Position numbers and translations under genes: made by a program. Under the pieces are notes generated by a model. The model worked only from the letters and a program-made list of their open reading frames with translations. It was not told where the DNA came from and did not search any database. Below are positions 54,497 to 62,772 of a DNA stretch of 64,000 nt, in pieces. Positions within the stretch are counted from its first letter, which is position 1. The number at the start of each line of letters is the position of its first letter. Location of the stretch: assembly GCA_002839375.1 (NCBI GenBank), contig PGXY01000009.1, positions 64,080-128,079 on the forward strand, given 5' to 3'. The DNA is from Spirochaetae bacterium HGW-Spirochaetae-1. Lineage in GTDB: Bacteria; Spirochaetota; UBA4802; UBA5550.

Positions 54497-55933
54497 ATGA
54501 GTGAATTGATAAACATCGTATGCAGTAATTGCCACACCAGGTATGCCATGACCCGGATCGATATAAATGATTTGCATGCATCAGTGATGGTGTGTGAAAA
54601 ATGCCGGCGAAATATCAAGATAATACTGTGTCCCGGTTGCGAATCTTTCTATTCTCTGACTTATCAGCTGGTTCCCTATCAGCGATACATGATGGTGTGT
54701 AAAAAATGTTCGGCATCCTTCACGGTGACCTTTCCTGTAATGCAGGGACAGGTAATAAAAACTGATAAAACAATAATTCATGATACAACCGGGAATAGCA
54801 TGATGTTCCGGATGGAGAACAGTGTCCGCGATGCGGTAAACAGGGTGCCGGTGTATGGCCGTAGGCATTCCGGCGAGAGGAGAGAAACCGCCCATGAGGC
54901 TGCACCGTGTGGAGTCGATGAAAATGACGGGGTATTCGGCTCGTTACTTTCCGTTATTGGAAAAACGTTTTCGCCGGCAAAAATTGCATTGGCCATCCCA
55001 GTTGTAATCATTATTCTTCTGGCCTTAACGTACCTGCGGGGCAGGGCTCCGGTTTTTGTGAGGCGGGGAGCCGTTGACTCATTTCTGAATATCCCGGTCA
55101 TGGTATCAATCCTGGTGTTATATGTAATTACTGCCACGGCCATAGCCAGGGTGACCGTTGAGGATATGCTCCATGGCCGCGCGATGGGCATACGGAAAGC
55201 GGGAATGTTCGCCTTGAGAAAAGCAGGACTCGTGTCGATGGTCAATTTTCTTTTATGCGGTCTTCTCTTCGGTGCTTTCACCCTTTTCGGCATGATTCCC
55301 GTCGTAGGCCCGTTCTTTTTTGCATTGTCTTTCTTCCCTCTCTACGTTATAACCGTTATCATCATCATGATGATGATAACGGGATTCTGGTTTTATCCCC
55401 CGTTCCTGGCCTGTTCCCGTGAGAATGAGGAAAACAAAGAAAAAACATTTCTGCATTTTTTACTGCGCCACTTTATGGCACTCCTGTATCTTGTCCCCAT
55501 AATGATCATTGTCTGTGCCATTATATTTTCTGCCGTCTTTTCATTGCACTACGGGGCTTTGTCCGTCATGGCAGCCATTGTCAGGCTTGTGCCGGGTTCG
55601 GAGGCGGTGAAAACTCTTAATGCCATACCACCCGTTTTAAGTGTCGTGACCGATTTGTCCCTCCTGGCCAGGAATATGGACCTGGCAGGTACTTTACTGA
55701 AAGAACTTTATGTCTACCATAAAATCGCCGGACTCATCATGGGCCTTATTTTTTCAGGTCTGACTGTAATGTTTTTCTCGGTCATGATGTCTTTCACTGC
55801 TACACTATCGGCGGCGGTATATGTGTTACTTTGCCGAGGACAAAAGGTGACCGATACGGGTATTATGCGTGTCATGCTTTTCATCCTGTTCGCTCTGGGC
55901 ATCCTGTATTTTTTTAAGAAACTGTACCTGTAA
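54497..55933 (+). CDS. Membrane protein with N-terminal double zinc-ribbon and about 9 TM C-terminal domain
   Basis: CSNCHTRY...CEKCRR and CPGCESFY...CKKCSASF (two CxxC...CxxC ribbons), then a long hydrophobic domain. Begins 21 bp after the PBP1A stop. Confidence 0.5.
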   Translation: MSELINIVCSNCHTRYAMTRIDINDLHASVMVCEKCRRNIKIILCPGCESFYSLTYQLVPYQRYMMVCKKCSASFTVTFPVMQGQVIKTDKTIIHDTTGNSMMFRMENSVRDAVNRVPVYGRRHSGERRETAHEAAPCGVDENDGVFGSLLSVIGKTFSPAKIALAIPVVIIILLALTYLRGRAPVFVRRGAVDSFLNIPVMVSILVLYVITATAIARVTVEDMLHGRAMGIRKAGMFALRKAGLVSMVNFLLCGLLFGAFTLFGMIPVVGPFFFALSFFPLYVITVIIIMMMITGFWFYPPFLACSRENEENKEKTFLHFLLRHFMALLYLVPIMIIVCAIIFSAVFSLHYGALSVMAAIVRLVPGSEAVKTLNAIPPVLSVVTDLSLLARNMDLAGTLLKELYVYHKIAGLIMGLIFSGLTVMFFSVMMSFTATLSAAVYVLLCRGQKVTDTGIMRVMLFILFALGILYFFKKLYL

Positions 55934-58051: not shown

Positions 58052-59101
58052 TTAAAAGCCGATGTAAAATCCATTGTTCTGTGAGGCAAGCTGGCGCAGG
58101 AAATCAACGGCTTCAGTGTCTTCCTGGTTTCTGAATTCAGTGCCGATACCCATGGTAAAAATTTTCATGTTACGCCTGTTCATGGATTTAATTTTTTTCA
58201 GGAGCTCATTTTTGGTAGTGGTTTTTTTCCGCAGCGAGTCGGGCTGTCCGTCACTGAAGAGTATGATGCCCTCGGCGCTGCGATACGTGTCCCTGGCGAG
58301 AATGAATTCAAGGGCGTATTCCGTGGGCGTGTCATGGTATGGTTTCAGGCAGGCTATTTTTTTATAAAAATCATATTTTTCTTTTTCCGATGATACGGTT
58401 GTGAGAGAACCCTCGAAGTAGCCGTACTTGTAGCAGGGAAGGTCCATGCTGTCATAGGCTTCATCCCGCCGTTCGAATTTCCGGCATCGGCTGTCAATAT
58501 CCGGTTTGATGGTGAATCCGGGGCACTGTTCGCGGCTTATATTTTCAGCGAAGGCCGGGAAAAAAACTATATCGATCTGGTATTTCTCGTCCATGGCGGC
58601 GATAAACATTTTAAGGGCTGCCTTCACCTGGGAAAGGCGGTCCTCTTTATAACGGTTATTTTCCGGGGCCATGCTGCCCGAGAGGTCCACTACCATGACG
58701 ATTTTATGGGGGATCTGAAAGGCCATGAGTTTATCGGCATCTTCGGGAGTCTTGAAGAAATTCCTGTCAATGTCAGTGACCTTTTTTATGACTTCGCTGA
58801 ATTTATCCGCCGTGGCGTTCAGGGCTTTTGTGAGGGCCGATATAGTATCTGCTTTTTCAGGAAAATTTTCCCTGACTGTCTGGAGCTCTTTCCGCGTCTC
58901 TGTCAGTTCTTCCGTAGTCTTTGACAGCGTGTCCGTGGTGGCCATGAGTTCCTCTTTCACGTCCTGGCATGTCATGGACTCAATGCCGATTTTCTGCGTG
59001 AGAAGGACTATCATGATGATCATGACGGCGCCCAAGGCCCCGGTCATGACGTCCAGCATGGAAAGATTGAAAATATTTATTTCCCTGTTCAGGCGTCTCA
59101 T
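58052..59101 (-). CDS. ExbD/TolR-like membrane anchor fused to periplasmic coiled coil and von Willebrand factor A domain
   Basis: N-terminus EINIFNLSMLDVMTGALGAVMIIMIVLL resembles the ExbD/TolR TM signature, including the membrane Asp. vWA MIDAS VVDLSGSM, plus SDG and MGIG motifs. Confidence 0.6.
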   Translation of the reverse strand: MRRLNREINIFNLSMLDVMTGALGAVMIIMIVLLTQKIGIESMTCQDVKEELMATTDTLSKTTEELTETRKELQTVRENFPEKADTISALTKALNATADKFSEVIKKVTDIDRNFFKTPEDADKLMAFQIPHKIVMVVDLSGSMAPENNRYKEDRLSQVKAALKMFIAAMDEKYQIDIVFFPAFAENISREQCPGFTIKPDIDSRCRKFERRDEAYDSMDLPCYKYGYFEGSLTTVSSEKEKYDFYKKIACLKPYHDTPTEYALEFILARDTYRSAEGIILFSDGQPDSLRKKTTTKNELLKKIKSMNRRNMKIFTMGIGTEFRNQEDTEAVDFLRQLASQNNGFYIGF

Positions 59102-59133
59102 GGATTATGACCTCGATATATATCCGTGTCGTG

Positions 59134-59925
59134 TCACTTGCGGTCATCCACGGCCAGTCGGTTGATCAGGTTTGTCAGCACGTATTTCCCGTCCCTGTTG
59201 AGCGCCTCCTCTTCCCCCTTCTGAATCACGTTGAGAAGAAAAACAAGAATTGCGCTGAGCGTCAGGGCAACGATGGTGGTGCCGAAAGCGAAACCCAGGT
59301 CCGAGGTGAGGGTCTTGAACTGAAGTATCTTGTCGGCCTGGGCGCCCATGAACTTGTTTATGTCCAGGTGTCCCAGGGCCAGGGAGATTCCCACAACGGT
59401 CCCGATGAATCCCAGGGTGGGGATGGCCCATACGATATACCGGGTCATGGCGTAGCGCAGATCAAGGCGGTGTATGTTCAGTTCAAGGGTGCTGTTGAGG
59501 ACGGCGATGGTATCGCTGACGGAATGGGATTTGACATACTGTAGAATGCAGGTATTGATGAGGTCCGGCAGGTATGCCTCGCCGCGCATTGAAGCATTGG
59601 CCGCGTTTATACGTATGATTTCGATCTCCTGGTCGGTTTTAAGGAGCGATCCTTCAGTCTCGGGAAGGAAACCCGACATGCGGAGAAAAACATTTTCTTC
59701 GTGTGTGGCAATCCATCGGACCCAGAGCTGGGCCAGGCCAATGAAGAAAAACAGGTGCATGAGGTTTTGCAGTGTGAACGGGTAGACCGATGAGCTCGTC
59801 TCGCCGATGAGCATGTCTCCGGCGGCCTTTCCGCCGATAACAACGGTGAGGATAGAAATAATAACAATGGTCACAAGGACTGAAATACCCATGGCAACCC
59901 AGTTTCTGTTTATCGTGCTTATCAT
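59134..59925 (-). CDS. MotA/TolQ/ExbB-family proton-channel protein
   Basis: Start chosen at MISTINRNW (complement 59923-59925, GGGGA RBS). The ORF-track start at 60114 would overlap the upstream gene. 3 TM topology with family signature IPTLGFIGTVVGISLAL. Confidence 0.7.
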   Translation of the reverse strand: MISTINRNWVAMGISVLVTIVIISILTVVIGGKAAGDMLIGETSSSVYPFTLQNLMHLFFFIGLAQLWVRWIATHEENVFLRMSGFLPETEGSLLKTDQEIEIIRINAANASMRGEAYLPDLINTCILQYVKSHSVSDTIAVLNSTLELNIHRLDLRYAMTRYIVWAIPTLGFIGTVVGISLALGHLDINKFMGAQADKILQFKTLTSDLGFAFGTTIVALTLSAILVFLLNVIQKGEEEALNRDGKYVLTNLINRLAVDDRK

Positions 59926-59995
59926 GTGATATCCCCTGTTGAATTTATCGGATGTGATAACATATTTAGTTCCTGTACTATTGAACGGCACGGGA

Positions 59996-61423
59996 CTACC
60001 GCCGCGGTACGCATTTACCCGTATTGTCCCGGTAATAGCCGTCCTCGCAGACACAGGTTCCCTTACGCTTTGACCAGGTTTCATGTTCGCTGCGGCAGCG
60101 TTTGACACAGACAAATTTATGGGGTCCGCTCTTCATGGGCACCATGGCTTCATCATTGCGGCATCCCGCCGTGCAGGCCCCGTCGAATCCAATGATTTCA
60201 CAGGGATCGCACCGGTCAGTTTTTGTGTTGAGCCTGTATCCCTTCACGCACACGCACGTGCTCTGGTCGCTGTTCCAGGTCTCATGGGCGCGGCAGGTGC
60301 AGTAACCGTCTTCATTTATAAATCCCCGGCGCGCCTCGCAGCGCTCTTTGAATTTTATGAATTTAGCCTGCTGGTTCTTTTTCTTTTCTTCCCAGCCTTC
60401 TTTCTCTTTTTTGAACTCTTCCATTTCCCGGTCCAGGTTTTTTTGTTCCTTTTCCAGTTTTTCATCATGGACTTTTTTGTTTTCTCCGCTGTAGGCGTTG
60501 CGTGAAATGGTCTTCATGATGTCCAGCTCGGCCTGTTTGCGCGCCATGTCGCTTTCACGGTCATCGAGATTCTTTTTCGCATTGTCCAGGTCTTTTTTCG
60601 TCACATCGAGCTGGACCTTGGTGTCATCCAGTTCCTTCTGCATGGAGACGAGCTGTCCCCTTGTGGTGTCCAGGGCATCCTTCGTGTCGGAGAGGCGGGT
60701 CTTCACCGATCCCAGTTCATCTTCAGTCTGGTCCAGGCGGTTTTTTGCCGATGAGAGATCCCCCTCGGTTTTTTTCAGCATCTCGCGGGTACCATCCAGG
60801 TCGCCTTTGGTGCTGCCCAGCTCTTCACGGGCCTTGCCCAGGGCTTCAATTGCCTGGTCGAGTTTATCCCTGGTCTCGCCGAGACCCCGGCGCACCGCCA
60901 TGAGCTCGCGGCTCGTTGATGCCTGGCTTTGCCGTATAGTAGAATAGGTTCCGAAATTGAACCGCGCCGCCAGGCCGAAGTTTATATCGAAAGCGGTATG
61001 GGGCGTCATTATCATCACCGGAGCAGCGTATAGAGAGAAATTCACGGGATAATTGCGCAAAGGCAGATCCAGGCCCACGGGCAGACGAAGGGCCGCGCGA
61101 AAATCACCCTCATCGGTTCCCAGGAGGAAACCGCCGCCGAAGAAGAAGAGCAGACTCATCGAAGAATCACCATACAGATTAAAGGGTTCGTAGAGCAGGT
61201 CCGTGGTAAAGGCGAAATCTTTACTGATCGTTGCGCCCAGGGCACTGTCTATGCCCAGGTAGTCCGTGAACCAGTATCGCGTGTTAAGACCCGAGGGCAT
61301 GCCGGCTACGCCGCCTAGTTCAAAACTGCCTTTCTGTGAGAAAGACCCCTGGGCATTTGCCCCGCCATCCGGTATAGCGATCAACAGTAGGGATATTATA
61401 AAAGGAAATAGTCTGTTTAGCAT
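59996..61423 (-). CDS. Secreted protein: signal peptide, OmpA-like beta-barrel region, 16 perfect heptads, Cys-rich EGF-like C-terminal domain
   Basis: Start at MLNRLFPFIISLLLIAIPDGGANA (signal peptide); 61465 is an alternative. Amphipathic beta-strands end in FNFGTY. Heptads are LGETRDK LDQAIEA ... LDNAKKN. C-terminus has CTCRAHETW..CVCVKGY..CDPC..CTAGC..CVKRC..CVCEDGYY..C. Confidence 0.55.
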   Translation of the reverse strand: MLNRLFPFIISLLLIAIPDGGANAQGSFSQKGSFELGGVAGMPSGLNTRYWFTDYLGIDSALGATISKDFAFTTDLLYEPFNLYGDSSMSLLFFFGGGFLLGTDEGDFRAALRLPVGLDLPLRNYPVNFSLYAAPVMIMTPHTAFDINFGLAARFNFGTYSTIRQSQASTSRELMAVRRGLGETRDKLDQAIEALGKAREELGSTKGDLDGTREMLKKTEGDLSSAKNRLDQTEDELGSVKTRLSDTKDALDTTRGQLVSMQKELDDTKVQLDVTKKDLDNAKKNLDDRESDMARKQAELDIMKTISRNAYSGENKKVHDEKLEKEQKNLDREMEEFKKEKEGWEEKKKNQQAKFIKFKERCEARRGFINEDGYCTCRAHETWNSDQSTCVCVKGYRLNTKTDRCDPCEIIGFDGACTAGCRNDEAMVPMKSGPHKFVCVKRCRSEHETWSKRKGTCVCEDGYYRDNTGKCVPRR

Positions 61424-61512
61424 GGTTTTTTCTGTAAACCCCAATGATTTTGTCCCGTGTATCATATGATTTTCGGTACAAACCGGTTTGATATGAAGAG
61501 TTTATCTCGTAT

Positions 61513-61541
61513 ATGATATATAAATGCCGGGGAAAAGTCAA
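61513..61541 (-). promoter_or_regulatory. Putative sigma70 promoter (TTGACT-17-TATCAT on minus strand) for the 59996..61423 cluster
   Basis: Plus-strand AGTCAA 61536-61541 and ATGATA 61513-61518 with a 17-nt spacer, immediately downstream (on the minus strand) of the 34-bp palindrome. Confidence 0.4.
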
Positions 61542-61564: not shown

Positions 61565-61598
61565 TGTGTTGGTGCAAATCATGATTTGCACCAACACA
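61565..61598. promoter_or_regulatory. 34-bp perfect palindrome (candidate operator or terminator)
   Basis: TGTGTTGGTGCAAATCAT|GATTTGCACCAACACA is exactly self-complementary. It sits 7 nt after the lipoprotein gene stop and just upstream of the promoter above. Confidence 0.45.
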
Positions 61599-61605
61599 GG
61601 AATTT

Positions 61606-62772
61606 TTAATAATCCGAGGCAATAGGCCCCTGGTAGTTGATGGACATACCCAGGAGCTGAGAGGAGGATGCGCTCGATGTCCCGGCTGTGCCACCCAGGC
61701 CGATGTCGCAGGCCAGAACGATGTTGCCGGAAATAGCGCTGATACAGCCAGGCACTTCATTCCCCAGGATTGTTCCGCCGGACCAGAGCATTTTCCATAC
61801 ATTAAGGCTCGATGTTCCCATCAATGTCCATATTGCAGCACTGGAAACATACTGGTTATAGATGCTCCCATTAAAGGGTGTGCTGGCAATGCTACCGTTA
61901 CGCAGGAGGGGCATTAGACGTACTCCGTTACAATACAGCTCAATTATCGGTCCCTGGTTAACTGTAGGATCGTTCCAGCCCAGAATTTTCATTTCAACGG
62001 TAAAAGGCTCCTCGAGATTTATGAATTCTGAGTTGTCCGGCATGACATGAGGGATGTTGATAAATCCAAGCTCATCTGCCAGTGCGGTAGTGACATCGGG
62101 AAGCTGTAAGATCAGATAGTCTGCGCTTCCTGTTTTTACTGCTTTTACAAGGATACCACCGTTCTGCTGAGTTTCATGCCCATCTTCTACTTTGTCTACG
62201 AATCCCATGGTGAGTCCGGCATATTGGCCGGTTAATTTAAATTCATGACCGGTAAATATTCCTAATGTGTAAATGAAATTACTGGTTACAGTAGCGGTTT
62301 CCGTAAGGATGAATCTGCCTGTCATGGTCATTGGGAACGAATACCAGAGTTCATTCTCGTTCCGCCCCGCGTTGTTGTTGTTTATCATGAACCACACCAG
62401 CATGTTTTCTTCGCTGTTGTAGTAATAATATCCGTCTTCATCTTTTGGCGCTTCAACATAGTGATCTTCGTTGATGCTGAAAGAGCTTCCCTGCTGGTCC
62501 GTATATTTAGTACCGTAAATATCGGAAACGCTGTTGATGGCGCCGCAGAAACCATCGCAATCGCTGCCGGCGATTTCCTGGGGAAAGGCCACGATGCCGC
62601 GCATCTGGCCGTTAAGGACACTGACCAGGTCAGCTGCCGAGGTGACTACGCCGGTTTTTTCGTCGTCGGCATAGGGGTCGCGGTCTGATAGCGCGGGGCT
62701 GCAGGCCGTAAAGGCCGTCAGCAGTGCAACTGATAGTGATACTATCGAACTGATAAGATATTTATTTTTCAT
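61606..62772 (-). CDS. Hypothetical secreted lipoprotein
   Basis: Signal peptide and lipobox-like LTAFTAC. 388 aa, no recognised catalytic motif. Confidence 0.5.
   Translation of the reverse strand: MKNKYLISSIVSLSVALLTAFTACSPALSDRDPYADDEKTGVVTSAADLVSVLNGQMRGIVAFPQEIAGSDCDGFCGAINSVSDIYGTKYTDQQGSSFSINEDHYVEAPKDEDGYYYYNSEENMLVWFMINNNNAGRNENELWYSFPMTMTGRFILTETATVTSNFIYTLGIFTGHEFKLTGQYAGLTMGFVDKVEDGHETQQNGGILVKAVKTGSADYLILQLPDVTTALADELGFINIPHVMPDNSEFINLEEPFTVEMKILGWNDPTVNQGPIIELYCNGVRLMPLLRNGSIASTPFNGSIYNQYVSSAAIWTLMGTSSLNVWKMLWSGGTILGNEVPGCISAISGNIVLACDIGLGGTAGTSSASSSQLLGMSINYQGPIASDY

Follow-up and report, generated by a model that had tools for sequence, protein, structure and literature searches.

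Organisation of the locus

Three co-directional genes lie on the minus strand of the window, the 64,000-nucleotide stretch of DNA analysed here: A (59996..61423), B (59134..59925) and C (58052..59101). An ORF check found all three at these positions, in agreement with a preliminary description of this DNA. The genes are separated by about 70 bp (A–B) and 32 bp (B–C). From its ATG at 61423, gene A encodes a 475-aa protein in which a signal peptide is followed by an outer-membrane barrel, a helical stalk and a Cys-rich knob; an alternative ATG is located at 61465. Gene B encodes a MotA/ExbB/TolQ-family channel subunit of 263 aa, one residue shorter than the 264 aa given previously. The product of gene C (349 aa) has a short basic N-terminus, followed by a transpore-type transmembrane (TM) helix, a coiled coil and a vWA domain.

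A sigma-70-like promoter candidate (TTGACT-17-TATCAT, 61513..61541, minus strand) is located upstream of gene A. The site is present as described before and matches at 10 of 12 positions, but it is weak evidence for a dedicated promoter, because the region has no excess of such sites (12 found versus 8.9 ± 3.3 expected from shuffles). The perfect 34-bp palindrome at 61565..61598, also noted earlier, consists of two 17-nt arms with 100% complementarity and no spacer, and occurs once in the window, where no copy is expected. It could form a terminator-like stem and is read most simply as a terminator, since it lies 7 bp past the stop codon of the upstream lipoprotein gene. It is thus probably the terminator hairpin of that gene and marks the 5' boundary of the module.

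A Pfam scan bore out the tandem-PAS protein and the outer-membrane protein reported beside the module, the latter being an OmpL1-like porin. The upstream 388-aa protein matched no family and is called a lipoprotein, as before, solely by its N-terminal sequence. None of these three neighbours is kept beside the module elsewhere.

A channel subunit paired with a membrane-anchored vWA protein

Protein B matches the Pfam family MotA_ExbB (PF01618) with 36.7 bits (cutoff 22.9), and its hydropathy profile contains three hydrophobic segments, in line with the 3-TM, ExbB/TolQ/MotA-type protein proposed at the outset. A single-sequence phmmer search of the PDB returned no match for B; a B profile detected PomA (E = 0.006), TolQ (E = 0.008) and MotA (E = 0.016), with the threonine residues aligned. 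Invariant residues of B comprise W166, I168, P169, GFIGTV (172–177), A213, F214, T216 and T217. Of these, T176 and T216/T217 correspond in the alignment to the PomA pore threonines. By its sequence, B is therefore assigned to the MotA/ExbB/TolQ family, with conserved pore threonines.

The sole TM helix of protein C (58997..59074, minus strand) spans residues 10–35 and contains Asp17 (codon 59051–59053). In 30 diverse sequences, Asp17 lies within the invariant motif F-x-x-S-x-x-D-x-x-x-G-A-L-G-A, in which F11, S14, D17 and G21–A25 do not vary. Of 115 C-family representatives (50% clustering), 113 have the TM Asp, which is thus essentially invariant among homologues. The helix had been said to mirror that of ExbD/TolR. 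Alignment by hhalign places D17 on TolR D23 and ExbD D25, but with a non-significant E value of 0.3, and a profile search of the PDB found no ExbD, TolR or MotB. The likeness in sequence is therefore at the level of the motif only, and homology lacks statistical support.

The TM helix is followed by a helical coiled-coil spacer (58754..58984, minus strand; residues ~40–116), the length of which varies across the family. In the monomer model, this region forms helices 46–79 and 81–116; pLDDT is low for the TM and coiled-coil parts. The vWA domain (58055..58714, minus strand; residues 130–349) was modelled with pLDDT above 90. Foldseek matched it to ITIH1 (E = 1e-8), as well as to CLCA1, alpha2delta and integrin I domains, so that the model confirms the vWA fold. 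The domain has a complete MIDAS, as first recognised, consisting of D139-x-S141-x-S143, T258 and D284. All five residues are invariant in the 30 diverse sequences, and DxSxS occurs in 115/115 C-family representatives. A clade-specific insert of ~40 aa with conserved Cys residues interrupts the vWA domain. These Cys residues and the basic N-terminus fit a topology in which the N-terminus of C would be cytoplasmic and the C-terminus periplasmic.

Of 77 related loci, 73 have gene B immediately upstream of gene C; the median distance between the two is 0 bp, and many pairs overlap by 4 bp. The pairing occurs in Spirochaetota, Bacteriovoracaceae and Bacteroidota; in a few Bacteroidota loci, a C-type gene does not have B beside it. 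Gene C is translationally coupled to B across phyla. The stator-type logic proposed for the module is supported by this coupling, together with the family of B, its pore threonines and the near-invariant Asp of C.

An outer-membrane protein with a stalk and a Cys-rich knob

Residues ~30–160 of protein A (60944..61336, minus strand) constitute an 8-stranded, OmpA/OprF-like outer-membrane beta-barrel, the final strand of which ends in ARFNF. The signal peptide and the OmpA-like strands were thus correctly recognised in the preliminary description. In known members of the OmpA-like barrel fold, the C-terminus is periplasmic.

The stalk (60332..60955, minus strand; residues 157–364) comprises ~208 helical residues in three predicted helices. 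It includes the sixteen consecutive heptads reported before, each with Leu at position 1, but these depart from a perfect pattern: T/A fills position 4 in 13 of the 16 heptads, and K/R fills position 5 in 11. The heptad Leu is invariant across homologues, and no tandem repeat was found in this region at the DNA level.

The knob (59999..60340, minus strand; residues 362–475) is a beta-rich module modelled with a pLDDT of ~90. Its 114 aa contain 14 Cys, and not the approximately 18 counted originally. The EGF-like spacing held at the level of the pattern: two C-x-C-x2-G-Y-x7-8-C copies are present, and 29 of 30 A homologues have two copies of the general form C-x-C-x2-[GP]-[FYW]-x4-8-C, compared with 0.6% of shuffles. 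However, the knob matched no Pfam model, those for EGF included, no PDB entry and no recognised fold. Conserved acidic residues of the knob are E448, which is invariant, and D424, E425 and E381 (each at least 90%).

Distribution of the three-gene module

All 33 homologues of A are full-length orthologues encoded on contigs that also carry B and C. Domain HMMs placed A immediately upstream of B in 17 spirochaete loci and in two further loci (L092 and L093). A is present in every locus found in which C identity is at least 48%, with strict co-occurrence and adjacency of A, B and C in 19/19 loci of the clade; the three-gene neighbourhood is thus kept within the spirochaete clade. On this point and on the invariance of the TM Asp, the checks proposed in the preliminary description favoured its reading. 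The genes flanking A-B-C are not conserved between loci. All recovered A-B-C loci are metagenome-assembled or metagenomic sequence.

A is absent from Bacteriovoracaceae, from Bacteroidota and from a clade with C at 41–45% identity, so that within the B-C family it is restricted to a single clade. One relative that lacks A, L025, encodes upstream of B a lipoprotein containing true EGF domains, beside a 4xDsbA protein.

A candidate trans-envelope motor

Proteins of the MotA/ExbB/TolQ family typically form assemblies in which five channel subunits surround a plug dimer. B and C may accordingly form an inner-membrane, ion-driven motor unit of this type, conceivably with 5:2 stoichiometry and a rotating plug. 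C would replace ExbD/TolR/MotB, placing its Asp17 helix in the B pore beside the conserved threonines. In the periplasm, C would extend a coiled-coil arm ending in the vWA domain, the metal-ion site of which could grip an acidic residue of a partner. Since C has no peptidoglycan anchor, the C dimer would be the moving part and would pass torque or pull to whatever the vWA domain holds. In this spirochaete clade, the most likely partner would be protein A, whose barrel would sit in the outer membrane and hang the long stalk and the disulfide-rich, EGF-patterned knob into the periplasm. The knob could plausibly dock on the vWA MIDAS. Together, A, B and C would span the envelope and couple the proton-motive force to the outer membrane, possibly to tether or stabilise the outer membrane or to serve another process there. 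We consider a B-C proton motor coupled through A to the outer membrane the best explanation of the locus, with a probability of roughly 55%.

A rather unlikely but serious alternative is that B and C form a proton motor for which A is not the ligand. A would then act independently as a periplasmic spacer or tether anchored in the outer membrane, comparable to OmpM or Lpp and merely co-transcribed, while the vWA domain would have another target, for example a different lipoprotein of the outer membrane, a protein associated with the cell wall or a secreted polymer. A is missing from most B-C lineages, so the vWA ligand cannot be A in general; the third gene varies by lineage, encoding an ankyrin lipoprotein, an EGF lipoprotein, another lipoprotein or nothing at all. 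Neither structure nor sequence, down to the level of residues, provides evidence of a contact between knob and MIDAS. Against this stands the position of A beside B-C in all 19 clade loci while the flanks vary, a pattern that usually marks a partner in structure or function.

We regard as improbable a Zorya-like role as an envelope-integrity sensor, anti-phage or conflict system, in which the periplasmic arm would sense perturbation and signal inwards. Zorya is a precedent for MotAB-like defence, and some surroundings point in this direction: a sibling pair of B and a TPH protein (L004) is flanked by a reverse transcriptase and a complete Septu system (PtuA E = 2e-178, PtuB E = 8e-70), the A-B-C locus L092 is near PDC-M29A/B, some genes neighbouring spirochaete loci match Cas6 or MADS models, and FHA, Ser/Thr kinase and PP2C genes occur in sibling clusters. 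However, PADLOC gave only generic, weak ZorA/ZorB matches (B, E = 1.6e-4; C, E = 0.02), B has no ZorA-like long cytoplasmic tail, and the module has no effector gene. Moreover, the immediate neighbours examined are not defence genes, the Bacteriovoracaceae pair resides in a stable housekeeping neighbourhood common to 20–26 loci, and the window has ordinary flanks and a base composition that is not island-like. That the genes are ordinary paralogues of Tol-Pal, ExbBD-TonB or flagellar stator components, or BatA/BatB-type aerotolerance vWA proteins, is highly improbable. B does share a Pfam family with TolQ, ExbB and MotA, and there is a weak NCBIfam match to BatA. Yet the BatA score (18.6 bits) and the MotA score (15.5 bits) are far from the cutoff of 380 in each case; C has no ExbD Pfam match; B alone retrieved no PDB entry by phmmer; and no MoxR or DUF58 occurs among the window proteins scanned. 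ExbD, MotB, TonB and TolA domains were likewise missing from the seven window proteins scanned, the three of the module included, and the Pfam scan of the module found no TolR, TolB, Pal or OmpA-like peptidoglycan-binding domain. This reading is largely refuted by the family scans.

Comparison with known systems

By the family scans, the module is not Tol-Pal, Ton, a flagellar stator, BatA/B or Zorya: its three products matched no ExbD/TolR/MotB, TonB/TolA, BatA/B or Zorya model. With the 5:2 motors ExbB-ExbD, TolQ-TolR, MotA-MotB and PomA-PomB, the module shares the channel family of B and its aligned pore threonines, a partner with one TM helix and an essential-type Asp, and adjacent, translationally coupled genes. 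It differs in that C carries neither the ExbD/TolR periplasmic domain nor a MotB/OmpA peptidoglycan-binding domain; the output is a coiled-coil vWA protein and there is no TonB/TolA adaptor. Zorya ZorA-ZorB likewise represents a MotAB-like unit in a non-flagellar role, but its ZorA cytoplasmic coiled-coil tail, ZorB peptidoglycan-binding domain and ZorC/D/E effectors are missing here.

Protein A resembles OmpA/OprF-type barrels with periplasmic extensions in having a helical stalk with a terminal binding module. OmpM-type outer-membrane tethers also combine a barrel, a coiled coil and a cell-wall-binding head, in the reverse domain order. The head of A is a 14-Cys, EGF-patterned knob, in contrast to the OmpA-C or SLH domain of these proteins. 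BatA and BatB are, like C, membrane-anchored vWA proteins of spirochaetes and Bacteroidota; they are encoded in MoxR-DUF58-Bat operons and are not known to have a MotA partner or a TM Asp motif. GldLM/PorLM, the motor of type 9 secretion and gliding, and the Myxococcus AglRQS-Glt machinery share with the proposed motor an ion-driven inner-membrane unit with a single-TM partner that crosses the periplasm and drives an outer-membrane-associated process; no GldL or GldM homology was detectable in the module. In Myxococcus, the vWA protein CglB is the terminal adhesin (PMC9946355), a separate outer-membrane lipoprotein, whereas the vWA domain of the module is fused to the plug.

The module was initially thought to be unlike any canonical system. 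This is true of the families compared above, but a class of the B-C type was published in 2025, when motors composed of a TolQ-like protein and a transpore-helix-vWA (TPH-vWA) protein were predicted ('Origin and Evolution of Bacterial Periplasmic Force Transducers', MBE 2025; PMC12204202, section 8). There, AF3 models put the Asp within a TolQ-like pentamer, and the class is presented as a 'second family' of putative force transducers, with no phenotype reported (PMC12204202). The published set consists mostly of heterologous gene pairs, chiefly from Proteobacteria and Verrucomicrobia; its vWA section names no outer-membrane partner, and the word 'Spirochaet' is absent from the main text (PMC12204202). 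Protein C aligned over its full length with paired TPH-vWA proteins adjoining a B homologue, with probabilities of 99.3% and 98.7%. As judged from these alignments, C is homologous end to end to the TPH-vWA type. In both, a MotA/ExbB/TolQ-family gene is in tight linkage with one that encodes a single-TM protein carrying a conserved Asp and a C-terminal vWA domain, and both lack a tolR/exbD gene and the SHLS/His motif. The B-C pair is therefore not new. The module differs in that its TPH-vWA gene is single and encodes a heptad coiled-coil arm, a form that occurs in Spirochaetota, Bacteriovoracaceae and Bacteroidota, and its own clade adds a dedicated outer-membrane barrel-stalk-knob protein. 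The new elements are this single-copy coiled-coil version of C and protein A. Because the channel and vWA pair has already been predicted (PMC12204202), the stalk protein is the new part, and it represents a candidate outer-membrane partner of the pair.

Genomic organisation and conservation of the module

The window derives from a groundwater spirochaete MAG and has an unremarkable base composition; its protein A shares 100% identity with a protein of Spirochaetae bacterium HGW-Spirochaetae-1. Three open reading frames are present on its minus strand, as the preliminary description had stated, and are separated by short gaps: gene A (59996–61423), encoding a barrel/stalk/knob outer-membrane protein; gene B (59134–59925), encoding a protein of the MotA/ExbB/TolQ family; and gene C (58052–59101), encoding a transmembrane (TM) helix, a coiled coil and a vWA domain. 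The reported 34-bp perfect palindrome was found at 61565–61598, 7 bp past the stop of the preceding lipoprotein gene, and is unique in the window. The promoter-like site was recovered as a 10/12 sigma-70-like match (61541–61513), although the region shows no enrichment of sites of this kind. The earlier observation of A–B–C is confirmed, with minor corrections needed.

We scanned species-representative genomes and confirmed 276 relatives of C; the 80 loci fetched belong to MAGs of Spirochaetota/Leptospirales, to many Bacteriovoracaceae and to Bacteroidota. Cultured carriers of the B–C pair are Halobacteriovorax and Bacteriovorax strains and Thermaurantimonas aggregans. Of the 77 loci that have both genes, 73 carry B directly upstream of C, with a median gap of 0 bp and frequent 4-bp overlaps; a few Bacteroidota loci carry a C-type gene without a neighbouring B. 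Neither the window nor any of the 80 genome loci examined has more than one C gene. Sought in other genomes, as had been proposed, the three-gene neighbourhood proved to be conserved in the spirochaete clade: domain HMMs placed A directly upstream of B at 17 spirochaete loci and at the comparison loci L092 and L093, which together account for all loci found whose C is at least 48% identical, and detected A at none of the other fetched loci. The genes flanking the module vary from locus to locus, and the PAS protein, lipoprotein, OmpL1-like porin and SDR of the window were not found beside it at other loci; these flanking genes were therefore left out of the module. Because the flanks differ while the A–B–C adjacency is kept, the unit is A–B–C in the spirochaete clade and B–C in general.

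In the neighbouring clade that lacks A, the adjacent genes encode an ankyrin lipoprotein, an EGF-repeat lipoprotein or another lipoprotein, or there is nothing in this position. At one such locus (L025, 979–5039), the gene directly upstream of B encodes a lipoprotein that has 49 Cys and four EGF domains recognised by Pfam, and before it lies the gene of a 953-aa protein of four DsbA-like thioredoxin domains; the arrangement is anecdotal, coming from a single locus. The comparison protein P0112 (507 aa) joins a B-type protein to a protein with a transpore helix (TPH) and coiled coil, apparently by read-through or frameshift. The fusion is probably an artefact of assembly or gene calling, and it is independent evidence for the adjacency of the two types of gene.

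Two further genes of the window were inspected. A putative lipoprotein of 388 aa, encoded directly upstream of the module (61606–62772, minus strand), has no match in Pfam, NCBIfam or PADLOC and is not conserved beside the module at other loci. In a 478-aa protein (54497–55933, plus strand), a polytopic membrane domain comes after two zinc-ribbon-like CxxC pairs at the N-terminus; the sole Pfam match of this protein, to Zn_ribbon_4, is sub-threshold.

Protein B is a divergent member of the MotA/ExbB/TolQ channel family

Protein B (263 aa) has three hydrophobic segments by hydropathy and scores 36.7 bits against Pfam PF01618 (MotA_ExbB; cutoff 22.9, E = 4e-9). In NCBIfam it matched no TolQ, ExbB or MotA equivalog, the MotA model giving 15.5 bits (cutoff 380). 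When 30 homologues with identities down to 24% were aligned, W166, I168, P169, GFIGTV (172–177), A213, F214, T216 and T217 proved invariant. A search of the PDB with the single sequence gave no match; the alignment profile alone reached PomA (E = 0.006), TolQ (0.008) and MotA (0.016), all weakly, and the invariant T176 and T216/T217 align with the GT and TT of PomA TM3 and TM4. Because of the Pfam match, the invariant residues and the alignment of these Thr in the PDB profile, B is a divergent, though genuine, member of the channel family. The ExbB/TolQ/MotA signature noticed earlier is thus borne out by a PF01618 score above the cutoff and by conserved pore-lining Thr.

Protein C carries a conserved transmembrane Asp and an intact MIDAS

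Protein C runs from a basic N-terminus through one TM segment and about 75 helical residues to a vWA domain, which was modelled with a pLDDT above 90 and matches ITIH1 (E = 1e-8), CLCA1, alpha2delta and integrin I domains. Across 30 aligned homologues, with identities down to about 27%, F11, S14, D17 and G21–A25 are invariant in the TM helix, as are D139, S141, S143, T258 and D284 in the MIDAS, the metal-ion site of the vWA domain. When 1.84 billion representatives were searched exhaustively with a profile, the C family came to at least 100 clusters (50% identity) at E ≤ 1e-30; among the full-length matches in the best 150, the TM Asp is kept in 113 of 115 and DxSxS in all 115. The intact MIDAS claimed in the preliminary description was thereby corroborated, and the TM Asp, whose invariance it had proposed to check, is invariant in the alignment and nearly so among the representatives.

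C shares with the ExbD/TolR type its one TM helix, which lies near the N-terminus and bears a conserved Asp. The likeness of this helix to ExbD/TolR, also noted earlier, holds at the level of the motif: hhalign against E. coli TolR and ExbD set REINIFNLSMLDVM against SEINIV--PLLDVL of TolR, with D17 over D23, in a motif-level alignment that is non-significant (E = 0.3, probability 0.2). The helix contains no His, and C has no SHLS/His motif. A TM-helix profile searched against all PDB sequences recovered none of ExbD, TolR, MotB, PomB and ZorB. In Pfam, the ExbD/TolR periplasmic domain (PF02472) gave no match in C at E ≤ 1 and no peptidoglycan-binding domain was found; where the ExbD/TolR periplasmic domain would sit, C has its coiled coil and vWA domain.

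Immediately after the TM helix, in the sequence ES.TCQD, lies Cys45 (window 58967–58969). The closest spirochaete homologues (54–68% identity to C) keep this residue, which the more distant clade lacks; in a C dimer it could link the two chains by a disulfide.

Protein A combines a barrel, a stalk and a Cys-rich knob

The AlphaFold2 model of protein A (mean pLDDT 81.7) comprises a barrel (residues 34–156), three helices (157–203, 211–310 and 314–364) and a beta-rich knob (367–475; pLDDT about 90). The fold of the N-terminal domain matches OmpA, OprF, OmpX or OmpW barrels and is of the 8-stranded OmpA-like type. The helical stalk contains 16 consecutive heptads beginning with Leu, and no tandem repeats were found in the DNA beneath them. 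The C-terminal module is Cys-rich as described, but with 14 Cys rather than about 18. Its EGF-like spacing is retained as the PROSITE pattern C-x-C-x2-[GP]-[FYW]-x4-8-C, which occurs twice in 29 of 30 A homologues, but Pfam EGF models gave no match to the knob at E ≤ 1. The PDB likewise held no match for the knob.

Comparison with canonical systems and sibling loci

Family scans argue against B and C being ordinary TolQ/TolR, ExbB/ExbD or BatA/BatB paralogues, which the preliminary description had named as the readings that would overturn its own. For Tol-Pal and Ton, Pfam and NCBIfam, run on the module products and on the window neighbours that were scanned, identified no TolA, TonB, TolB, Pal or TonB-dependent receptor. 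A flagellar MotAB stator is disfavoured by the NCBIfam MotA score (15.5 bits against 380) and by a C protein without an OmpA-like peptidoglycan-binding domain. BatA/BatB was rejected on an NCBIfam BatA score of 18.6 bits (cutoff 380) and a context with no MoxR or DUF58 among the window neighbours scanned by Pfam. The proposed PADLOC scan of the module returned generic Zorya matches only, to ZorA2 (E = 1.6e-4, MotA core only) and ZorB (E = 0.02); B is short, with no long ZorA tail, and Zorya effector genes are absent.

Homologues of B (42–47% identity) are clustered at L094 (1848–8810), at L095 in the same layout and at L004 (7579–16780), together with small FHA proteins, a 482-aa FHA membrane protein, Ser/Thr kinase–FGE–sulfatase fusions, a vWA-FHA protein and PP2C, a gene content suggesting that phospho-Ser/Thr signalling is connected to some sibling motors. 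Near C-type genes, too, PP2C genes occur in 9 loci, mostly of Bacteroidota. In the comparison proteins P0107–P0118 and at L004 8796–9581, a near-identical transpore helix (MKPRNREINIFNLSMLDVISGALGAF...) and a coiled coil are followed by a different C-terminal domain of about 110 aa with the motif DIDLHVVDPSGAEFYY. Precomputed tables label P0107 and P0113 as PF28006 HpsJ, and P0113 also has a weak DUF2135 match. Since the near-identical helix is found on a different C-terminal domain, the same plug carries interchangeable periplasmic heads.

Proposed mechanism and alternative explanations

The best-supported reading is a MotA/ExbB-type ion-driven unit made by B, which a C dimer is predicted to plug. 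With no wall anchor in C, it is the dimer that would move, bearing two vWA heads with their MIDAS on a coiled-coil arm. Protein A, genetically locked to B–C in the spirochaete clade, would offer a stalk anchored in the outer membrane and a disulfide-rich knob as the likely ligand of the vWA heads. The helical parts span roughly 12 nm in C and up to about 30 nm in A if the stalk is fully extended. The periplasm of spirochaetes is wide, and these lengths would suit it. Taken together, A–B–C may form a self-contained trans-envelope machine, in which a proton-driven rotor of the TolQ-like/TPH-vWA type grips the EGF-patterned knob of A through its MIDAS; we hold this complete picture tentatively, with a probability of roughly 0.3.

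Alternatively, A may be an unrelated tether that is co-transcribed with the pair, an explanation to be set beside its presence at every locus of the clade. The module may also be a Zorya-like envelope sensor, since some sibling or related loci lie beside Septu, reverse transcriptase, PDC-M29, Cas6 or MADS genes. However, the context of the pair in Bacteriovoracaceae is stable and housekeeping-like, and separate tests of ten sizeable genes in the vicinity yielded no match to a defence family other than one of a generic Lon/BrxL type. PADLOC returned a scatter of partly generic matches among 91 neighbours of the spirochaete loci, evidence too weak to support a defence role for the module.

Two loci illustrate the defence contexts. 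On a 2.5-Mb contig (L004, 5760–11518), the gene pair for B and an HpsJ-like protein has an HRDC/reverse-transcriptase pair on one side and a complete Septu system (PtuA, E = 2e-178; PtuB, E = 8e-70) on the other, which puts a sibling of the module in a defence-island context. Next after A–B–C at L092 (3996–7998) come a beta-propeller protein, an ORF of 139 aa and a candidate PDC-M29A/B defence pair (E = 1.6e-41 and 1e-15).

Ion-driven 5:2 motors are the power source of flagella, TonB-dependent uptake, Tol-Pal, gliding and Zorya defence, and the vWA-tipped class is so far a computational prediction without a known partner or phenotype. If A–B–C does act as a trans-envelope machine, A would be the first identified outer-membrane partner of this class, and the module would provide a Tol-Pal-like energised link between inner and outer membrane, adapted to the wide spirochaete periplasm. 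The spirochaete version points to a specific candidate for the ligand of the vWA heads, the genetically linked protein A, and turns force at the outer membrane into a binding question that can be addressed by point mutants at D17, in the MIDAS and at the conserved acidic positions E381, D424, E425 and E448 of the knob. The B–C pair occurs widely (E ≤ 1e-30 in at least 100 clusters of 50% identity; 276 relatives in species-representative genomes), and genetics of this core pair may be feasible in cultured Halobacteriovorax, Bacteriovorax and Thermaurantimonas aggregans.

Relation to the predicted TPH-vWA class

Our search for literature on MotA together with vWA found nothing beyond work on Myxococcus CglB and one paper in MBE (PMC12204202), which predicts a class of TolQ-like plus TPH-vWA motors without a tolR or exbD gene. 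TPH-vWA proteins have a conserved Asp in the transpore helix, which AF3 models put within the Thr ring of the pentamer; their genes are for the most part arranged in heterologous pairs, come chiefly from Proteobacteria and Verrucomicrobia, and have no known phenotype (PMC12204202). The main text of that paper does not mention spirochaetes, and its vWA section names no outer-membrane partner.

At L094, a TPH-vWA pair of 307 and 312 aa, the second protein of which has a degenerate MIDAS, adjoins a B homologue of 42% identity. Because C aligns full-length with both proteins of this pair (hhalign probabilities 99.3% and 98.7%), we assign the B–C core to the predicted TPH-vWA class, orthology to the Idiomarina set of PMC12204202 being assessed indirectly, through the L094 pair. 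The preliminary description had found no canonical match for the module. This stands with respect to Tol-Pal, Ton, MotAB and Zorya, and its interpretation was largely right in its logic; the core B–C pairing, however, was already known as a published prediction (PMC12204202).

As in the TPH-vWA class, the tolQ-like gene B adjoins C, no ExbD or MotB domain was found by Pfam in the module products and window neighbours scanned, and C has a conserved TM Asp, no SHLS/His motif and a C-terminal vWA domain. In contrast to the heterologous gene pairs that predominate in that class, although not as an absolute requirement, C is single here. The new elements are thus the outer-membrane barrel–stalk–knob partner A and the single-copy, coiled-coil form of C.
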